A program made the translations under genes and the position numbers. Below are positions 103 through 257 of a DNA stretch of 4,217 nucleotides, piece after piece. Under the pieces are notes generated by a model. That model was not told the DNA's origin and did no database searches. It worked only from the letters and a program-made list of their open reading frames with translations. The DNA comes from Escherichia coli (GTDB taxonomy: Bacteria; Pseudomonadota; Gammaproteobacteria; Enterobacterales; Enterobacteriaceae), in the NCBI RefSeq assembly GCF_003334255.1, contig NZ_QOWU01000109.1; one strand, written 5' to 3'. Within the stretch, counting starts at the first letter, position 1. Every line of letters starts with the position of its first letter.

Positions 103-122
103 TAACGTTTAACGGTAACGGT

Positions 123-148
123 GTCCCGAAACGAACCCGTTTCGGGAC
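123..148 (+). promoter_or_regulatory. Intra-operon stem-loop between gadB and gadC (possible partial terminator or mRNA stability/processing element)
   Basis: Perfect 11-bp inverted repeat GTCCCGAAACG (123-133) / CGTTTCGGGAC (138-148) around a 4-nt loop AACC, starting 21 nt after the gadB stop. It is followed by AATTTCC, only a weak U-tract. Immediately upstream are tandem TAACGG repeats (110-121). Confidence 0.5.
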
Positions 149-257
149 AATTTCCAAAGTCTGTTCACTGGCATTAGCAACGGAAAATATTGTTCTGAAT
201 ACGCTTCAGAACAAAACAGGTGCGGTTCCGACAGGAATACCGTTTTAGGGGGATAAT

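Follow-up and report, generated by a model that had tools for sequence, protein, structure and literature searches.

The gadB-gadC spacer and its hairpin

The window (the whole stretch of DNA that was analysed, 4,217 nucleotides in length) lies on the E. coli chromosome and carries, in plus-strand orientation throughout, the 3' end of gadB, then gadC, digH/yddW and yddY, and the first part of dosC; the identities of gadB and gadC are backed by RefSeq annotation of identical E. coli DNA. The enzyme GadB is soluble, as is GadA; the antiporter GadC resides in the membrane. The coding region of gadB is closed by tandem in-frame stops, TGA-TAA (window 100-105, with TAA at 103-105), and the spacer between the two genes occupies positions 103-257, a length of 155 nt. 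The spacer of MG1655 (K-12) was found to be identical to that of the window, and of 5426 complete E. coli genomes, 5406 carry the spacer, each as a single copy, with an identity of at least 99% in 4973 records. The features of the region are as follows.

1-102, plus strand: 3' end of the gadB coding region (RefSeq annotation), stop codon TGA at 100-102, translation ending in NSFKHT followed by the stop
103-121, plus strand: TAACG (103-107) and the tandem TAACGG-TAACGG (110-121), most likely a product of chance or of replication slippage
122-149, plus strand: gene-end RNA hairpin, 12 perfect pairs (122-133 with 138-149) around the loop AACC (134-137), -19.9 kcal/mol for the 28-mer (ViennaRNA)
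150-155, plus strand: tail of this hairpin, AAUUUCC, with a mapped RNA 3' end at U153 (Term-seq, Adams et al. 2021)
157-180, plus strand: 24-nt block AAGTCTGTTCACTGGCATTAGCAA, invariant in an alignment of the five Escherichia lineages compared
190-214, plus strand: second perfect hairpin, TTGTTCTGAA-TACGC-TTCAGAACAA, 10 bp, arms 190-199 and 205-214, -10.2 kcal/mol
223-257, plus strand: gadC leader, with a small hairpin at approximately 223-242 that has GGA in its 3' arm, and the Shine-Dalgarno sequence GGGGGA at 248-253 ahead of the ATG at 258
258-1793, plus strand: gadC (RefSeq annotation), encoding the glutamate:GABA antiporter, the downstream cistron, whose expression needs read-through past the hairpin at 122-149
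1819-1847, plus strand: intrinsic terminator at the end of the gadC operon, stem GGGAGCGA-TAATTCA-TCGCTCCC plus U5, with a Term-seq 3' end at 1847
1924-3243, plus strand: digH/yddW

The hairpin at 122-149 starts 20 nt past the gadB stop. Its arms, TGTCCCGAAACG (122-133) and CGTTTCGGGACA (138-149), are 100% complementary, seven of the 12 pairs are G-C, and the GC-rich base of the stem adjoins the tail. Both the MFE and the centroid folds of the spacer were dominated by this structure (z = -3.9 for positions 95-265). When the 155-nt spacer was shuffled 20,000 times with its dinucleotide composition preserved, one shuffle contained a perfect repeat of 12 bp or more with a loop of 3-8 nt (P ~5e-5), and for perfect repeats of 10 bp or more the value was P ~1e-3. 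An earlier note on this DNA had described a perfect 11-bp hairpin with a 4-nt loop and had judged it improbable by chance in a 155-bp spacer; the location, perfection and loop of the hairpin and its improbability were all borne out, while the stem proved to be 12 bp in length.

A search of Rfam 15 with window 1-400 (E <=10) returned no match to the hairpin, the two hits obtained being at chance level (E = 1.7 and 6.7) and located elsewhere. A REP/BIME element or other dispersed palindrome was ruled out, as the 41-nt hairpin segment (window 116-156) was found at a median of 1 place per genome among 5406 genomes. No published account of the hairpin was found in the gadB/gadC transcript literature or by sequence; older papers with gadBC Northern blots fall outside the literature covered, and an earlier mention is therefore possible.

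The repeats that precede the hairpin had been put forward in the earlier note as a further motif. The repeats are present, but as a feature they are marginal against chance and only partly conserved: a perfect two-copy tandem of period 6 was seen in 2.7% of the spacer shuffles (P ~0.027) and one of any period from 5 to 8 in 11%, and in other Escherichia lineages the first TAACGG copy reads TAAGCGG, TAAGTGG or TAAACAG. Tandem Repeats Finder called no repeat for the TAACGG tandem, which thus lies below its repeat threshold. The near-identity of gadA and gadB breaks off at approximately position 106, 4 nt past the first gadB stop, and since the 3' flank of gadA also opens with TAAC repeats (UGAUAACAUAACGUUGUAA, preceding the gadA hairpin described below), slippage is suggested beside this boundary.

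Downstream of the hairpin, RNase E-like RN/WUU motifs (the stroke marking the cleavage position) were located at 171 and 187 by motif scan. The first of these (GC/AUU) lies within the block at 157-180, together with a CTGTTCA motif, and the block is unchanged even in E. albertii, though the neighbouring hairpin varies there. Were the transcript to be processed as proposed below, this block would be a candidate cleavage or entry region. The second hairpin (190-214), which the earlier note does not mention, falls in the length class (10 bp or more) that has P ~1e-3 in the spacer shuffles. It is not maintained outside typical E. coli: the substitutions that E. albertii, E69 and MOD1-EC7003 have in it are non-compensatory. 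A T-rich run follows it on the minus strand, where it was flagged as terminator-like, and one E. coli allele carries a SNP in its loop (C204T). In the gadC leader, two GGA motifs lie approximately 15 nt apart, one in the small hairpin (ACAGGAAU) and the other in the Shine-Dalgarno sequence, a spacing that, speculatively, recalls CsrA sites. Binding of CsrA to the 5' leaders of gadA and gadB has been reported in a study that covered those leaders alone.

A mapped RNA 3' end and the tail of the hairpin

Published Term-seq data for MG1655 (Adams et al. 2021, eLife, PMC7815308, Supplementary file 1, M63 0.4 sheet) list a curated 3' end at 1570594(-) with an average count of 33,817 in M63 glucose. 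The sequence around this end, TAACGTTTAACGGTAACGGTGTCCCGAAACGAACCCGTTTCGGGACAATT[T]CCAAAGTCTG, is a 61-mer that maps to window 103-163, so that the 3' end falls exactly at window 153, on the final U of AAUUU, 4 nt beyond the stem. The next row of the same sheet is the 3' end of the gadC operon at 1568900(-), equivalent to window 1847, with a count of 70,553. In that study a 3' end was classed as 'primary' if it lay no more than 50 bp from a gene end (PMC7815308); both of these ends were filed as 'orphan', their distances from the gadB and gadC stops (51 and 54 nt, respectively) being just over the cut-off. The end at 1570594(-) can now be re-labelled as the gadB mRNA end.

The 3' end at 1570594(-) was listed for M63 glucose and was absent from the LB OD 0.4 and LB OD 2.0 sheets, and no other entries at 15705xx or 15706xx were present in the LB sheets or in the Rho-region table of the same study (Adams et al.). 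There were no gadB or gadC entries in the supplements of PMC5927463 (Dar & Sorek 2018 PLoS Genet), of SMRT-Cappable-seq or of the nanopore DRS paper. Term-seq counts represent steady-state ends and are no measure of mechanism or of stoichiometry; the end at 153 therefore indicates that RNAs ending at the foot of the hairpin are abundant in vivo under at least one condition. The earlier note had proposed that 3' ends be sought at about 148-155, and the published end lies within that interval.

The terminator of the gadC operon served as a yardstick for the tail. The tail that follows the gadB stem (AAUUUCCAAAG, also given as AAUUUCCA) contains 3 U in 8 nt, in agreement with the earlier observation that it lacks a strong U-tract, and the maximum U count over shifted tail windows was 3, compared to 6 for the gadC terminator. 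As regards what is expected of an intrinsic terminator, the stem-loop is suitable (12 bp, 7 G-C pairs, a 4-nt loop and -19.9 kcal/mol) and a 3' end is found in vivo a few nt past the stem (window 153), but the tail falls short of the U-tract (typically at least 5 U in 8). As regards what is expected of a stabiliser or exonuclease barrier, there is a stem-loop in the sense RNA after the upstream cistron, and a steady-state 3' end at the foot of its stem. A d'Aubenton-Carafa-style score was -23.8 for the gadB hairpin and +11.7 for the gadC terminator (modern energies were used, and the contrast alone is meaningful).

The distance from stem to 3' end was 4 nt for the gadB hairpin and 6 nt for the gadC terminator; direct intrinsic release usually occurs 7-9 nt from the stem. 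A scan with a consensus terminator model left the gadB hairpin unflagged and was given little weight because it missed the genuine gadC terminator too, the latter having escaped, in all likelihood, since flanking A/U pairs lengthen its stem into the U-tract. Hairpins downstream of gadC in other genera had been intended as a positive control for the U-richness of terminators, but their tails were indistinguishable from those of the spacer hairpins (mean highest U count per 8-nt window of 3.8 for both), and this comparison separates no mechanisms.

Conservation in Escherichia and recurrence in other genera

Across Escherichia, the sequence on either side of the hairpin hardly varies, and the changes found in the hairpin itself preserve the structure. 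E. albertii retains the stem through three double (compensatory) changes (U-A to C-G, A-U to G-C and A-U to G-C) plus one G-U pair, and in strain E69 an A-to-G change likewise gives a G-U pair in the stem, while in the MOD1-EC7003 lineage the stem is weakened (-14.8 kcal/mol). As G-U pairs function on the sense RNA alone, those of E. albertii and E69 support a structure on the sense strand.

Among E. coli records, 1812 of 5407 (approximately one third) have one or two SNPs within the 41-nt hairpin segment, and just 436 have two or more mismatches across the whole 155-nt spacer; the loop region 133-137 is therefore a hot spot of polymorphism in the spacer. In all 15 of the variant alleles sampled, the changes lay at loop positions 134, 136 or 137 or at the loop-closing position 133 (the alleles seen being A134C, C136G, C137A and G133A+A134C), and in all 15 the lower 11 pairs were untouched. 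One sampled variant also has C155T in the tail. Predicted stability across the sampled variants ranged from -17.7 to -19.9 kcal/mol. As far as can be judged from sequence comparison, this pattern supports selection on an RNA stem of the sense strand, with the argument from compensatory change being weakened because template switching on DNA can keep perfect palindromes perfect without selection.

A GadC-based scan with one genome per species returned 80 loci, most of which have gadB immediately upstream of gadC. Of the spacers, 54 were of at least 60 nt, including 4 from Escherichia, leaving 50 from outside the genus. The best stem had a shuffle P <=0.01 in 36 of the 54, while coding windows of equal length, used as a control, gave scores that resembled those of shuffles. 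ViennaRNA predicted a single hairpin of -15 kcal/mol or below for 44 of the 50 spacers from outside Escherichia, and the median distance from the gadB stop to the start of this hairpin was 20 nt. When the best hairpin was sought independently on the sense and antisense strands, the sense strand gave the better one at 35 of 50 loci (Wilcoxon p = 3e-4); the loci are phylogenetically non-independent. No homology was detected between the spacers of different genera except for a loosely aligning purine-rich region around the ribosome-binding site, and the hairpins are thus positional analogues. U-rich tails follow approximately 30% of the hairpins of other genera, and the tails range from U8 (Yersinia rohdei), U7 (Comamonas) and U6 (Serratia) down to no U, as in Providencia or Tatumella. 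Since hairpins are found at the same spot in so many genera, the arrangement is a recurrent one of decarboxylase and antiporter genes and no oddity of E. coli.

In K-12, gadA is followed by gadX, and a 15-bp hairpin, ACCGAAUGCCCAGCC...GGCUGGGCAUUCGGU, starts 18 nt past the gadA stop (at approximately 1621-1663 of locus L082, minus strand). Its sequence is unrelated to that of the gadB hairpin, and no Term-seq 3' end is listed after it in Adams et al.

The two proteins differ in their relationships. GadB of Escherichia shares 56-60% identity with GadB of other proteobacteria (Yersinia, Hafnia, Serratia, Proteus, Providencia, Acinetobacter, Halomonas, Brucella and Comamonas, loci L009-L076), which are themselves 75-95% identical to one another, while GadC of Escherichia is an ordinary member of the GadC group (70-78% identity to the same genera). 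By these comparisons the gadBC operon of Escherichia looks mosaic, and with such differing histories the junction would have to fall in or near the gadB-gadC spacer.

Origin of the gadB-only end and comparison with known systems

Positions 122-149 are read as a leaky gene-end hairpin. The earlier note had suggested either a partial terminator or a hairpin that protects a 3' end, and both the mapped 3' end and the sequence comparison support that reading. In the account that is placed first here, to which we give slightly less than an even chance, the stem-loop acts in the sense gadBC mRNA, where it would define and protect a gadB-only 3' end, with trimming as the main route to that end and with read-through to gadC. 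Most polymerases would read through the hairpin on account of its three-U tail, and 3' ends would be formed farther on in the untranslated spacer (105 nt), through cleavage by RNase E or through Rho-dependent or other termination. PNPase or RNase II would then trim the RNA in the 3' to 5' direction until blocked by the 12-bp stem, leaving ...GGGACAAUUU-3', and some RNAs with this 3' end possibly come from weak intrinsic termination at the UUU. Thus protected, the gadB segment would outlive the gadC segment, so that decarboxylase message would exceed antiporter message. Trimming is favoured because the tail has 3 U in 8 and begins with AA, the terminator score is low, the end lies 4 nt from the stem and RNase E-like motifs are present downstream; points against it are that the 3' end is listed for M63 glucose alone, that approximately 30% of the hairpins of other genera have U-rich tails, and that an end placed exactly at the close of a UUU run would be equally expected from weak intrinsic termination.

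That last observation is central to the principal alternative, a leaky intrinsic terminator in which the stem and AAUUU, possibly aided by NusA/NusG, would release some polymerases at approximately U153, with gadC being attenuated at the level of transcription. The strong stem with its GC-rich base beside the tail is what such an element would have, one E. coli variant gains a tail U (C155T), and a canonical hairpin with a U-tract occupies the same position in Yersinia rohdei (U8), Serratia H1w (U6), Citrobacter FP75 and Comamonas kerstersii with a related MAG (U7), so that termination after gadB is a recurrent solution in several genera. Set against this are the composition of the tail (3 U in 8 nt, the first two bases being A), the score of -23.8 compared to +11.7 for the gadC terminator, the end at 4 nt from the stem where 7-9 nt is usual and the failure of the terminator scan to flag the hairpin (though it also missed the gadC terminator). 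We consider a leaky terminator to be a serious contender, albeit on balance a doubtful one. By either route, the hairpin would yield a gadB-only RNA and lower gadC relative to gadB.

The hairpin could also be a relic, for example the old terminator of a monocistronic gene of the gadB/gadA type, which still blocks exonucleases and is not selected for tuning of gadB relative to gadC. The mosaic look of the Escherichia operon (GadB at 56-60% identity beside an ordinary GadC) would be in keeping with such an origin, as would the strong hairpin 18 nt past the gadA stop. A relic is nevertheless improbable, given that compensatory changes have preserved the stem between E. coli and E. albertii, that its lower 11 bp are invariant in the sampled E. 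coli alleles despite frequent loop SNPs and that the same arrangement recurs in the non-mosaic operons of many genera. It is very improbable that the palindrome works at the level of DNA, as the operator of a dimeric regulator or as a site of recombination or replication with the RNA ends being incidental, for although it has perfect 28-bp dyad symmetry and homogenisation by template switching would mimic compensatory change, position and stem are kept across genera while sequence is not, the arms co-vary even inside Escherichia as an operator would not tolerate, the G-U pairs are sense-only and at 35 of 50 loci the better fold is that of the sense strand, and the repeat lies within a transcribed operon, 20 nt past a stop codon, with an abundant RNA 3' end at its base.

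Intercistronic stabiliser hairpins are known from the REP sequence between malE and malF of E. coli and from the puf operon of Rhodobacter. A further example of selective RNA processing and stabilisation is the cip-cel operon of Clostridium cellulolyticum (PMC4423207). The gadB hairpin shares with these three systems a stem-loop just 3' of the more-needed cistron of a polycistronic mRNA, and an RNA 3' end where the stem closes, with no U-tract; unlike REP hairpins it is single copy and has no Rfam match. The likeness is one of structure and 3' end. In E. coli, a hairpin with no U-tract is commonly the sign of a 3' end that has been trimmed and stabilised (PMC6061677, PMC5927463). With the stem-protected ends that follow Rho termination or cleavage (Dar & Sorek 2018, PMC6061677; PMC5927463), the gadB hairpin has in common the want of a U-tract and an end a few nt past the stem, and, as with Rho- and RNase-processed ends (PMC6061677), it sits in a long untranslated stretch that is potentially open to Rho or RNase E.

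A different kind of precedent is offered by partial intrinsic terminators, which, according to the Rend-seq work of Lalanne et al. (2018), fix the proportions of the enzymes that one operon encodes. The likeness here is an internal 3' end between a highly needed enzyme gene and its less-needed partner, with read-through being required, and the difference is that the gadB hairpin has a poor U-tract (3/8) and a negative terminator score. With the terminator of gadC (1819-1847) it shares a GC-rich hairpin after a stop codon and a mapped Term-seq 3' end, but its stem is of 12 bp as opposed to 8 bp and it has three U in place of U5. By analogy, the gadB hairpin thus appears to match three known kinds of element in function, namely stabiliser hairpins, partial terminators that tune stoichiometry and stem-protected ends of Rho-terminated transcripts. 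It reveals no new kind of mechanism and would be an ordinary bacterial way to favour the product of the first gene over that of the second.

A broader proposal is that a leaky hairpin approximately 20 nt past the decarboxylase stop is a convergent design rule of gadB-gadC operons across the Proteobacteria and at least one Firmicute, which would set the ratio of decarboxylase to antiporter post-transcriptionally and would have been kept or rebuilt at the mosaic Escherichia junction, where gadB would stem from another glutamate decarboxylase lineage than the operon's gadC; we regard this as rather unlikely. For E. coli itself, if, as the earlier note assumes, far more enzyme than antiporter is needed, the hairpin would provide a simple explanation in cis for unequal output from one promoter, and the 28-nt stem may serve as a handle for the engineering of GABA production or for effects of the decarboxylase:antiporter ratio on acid survival.
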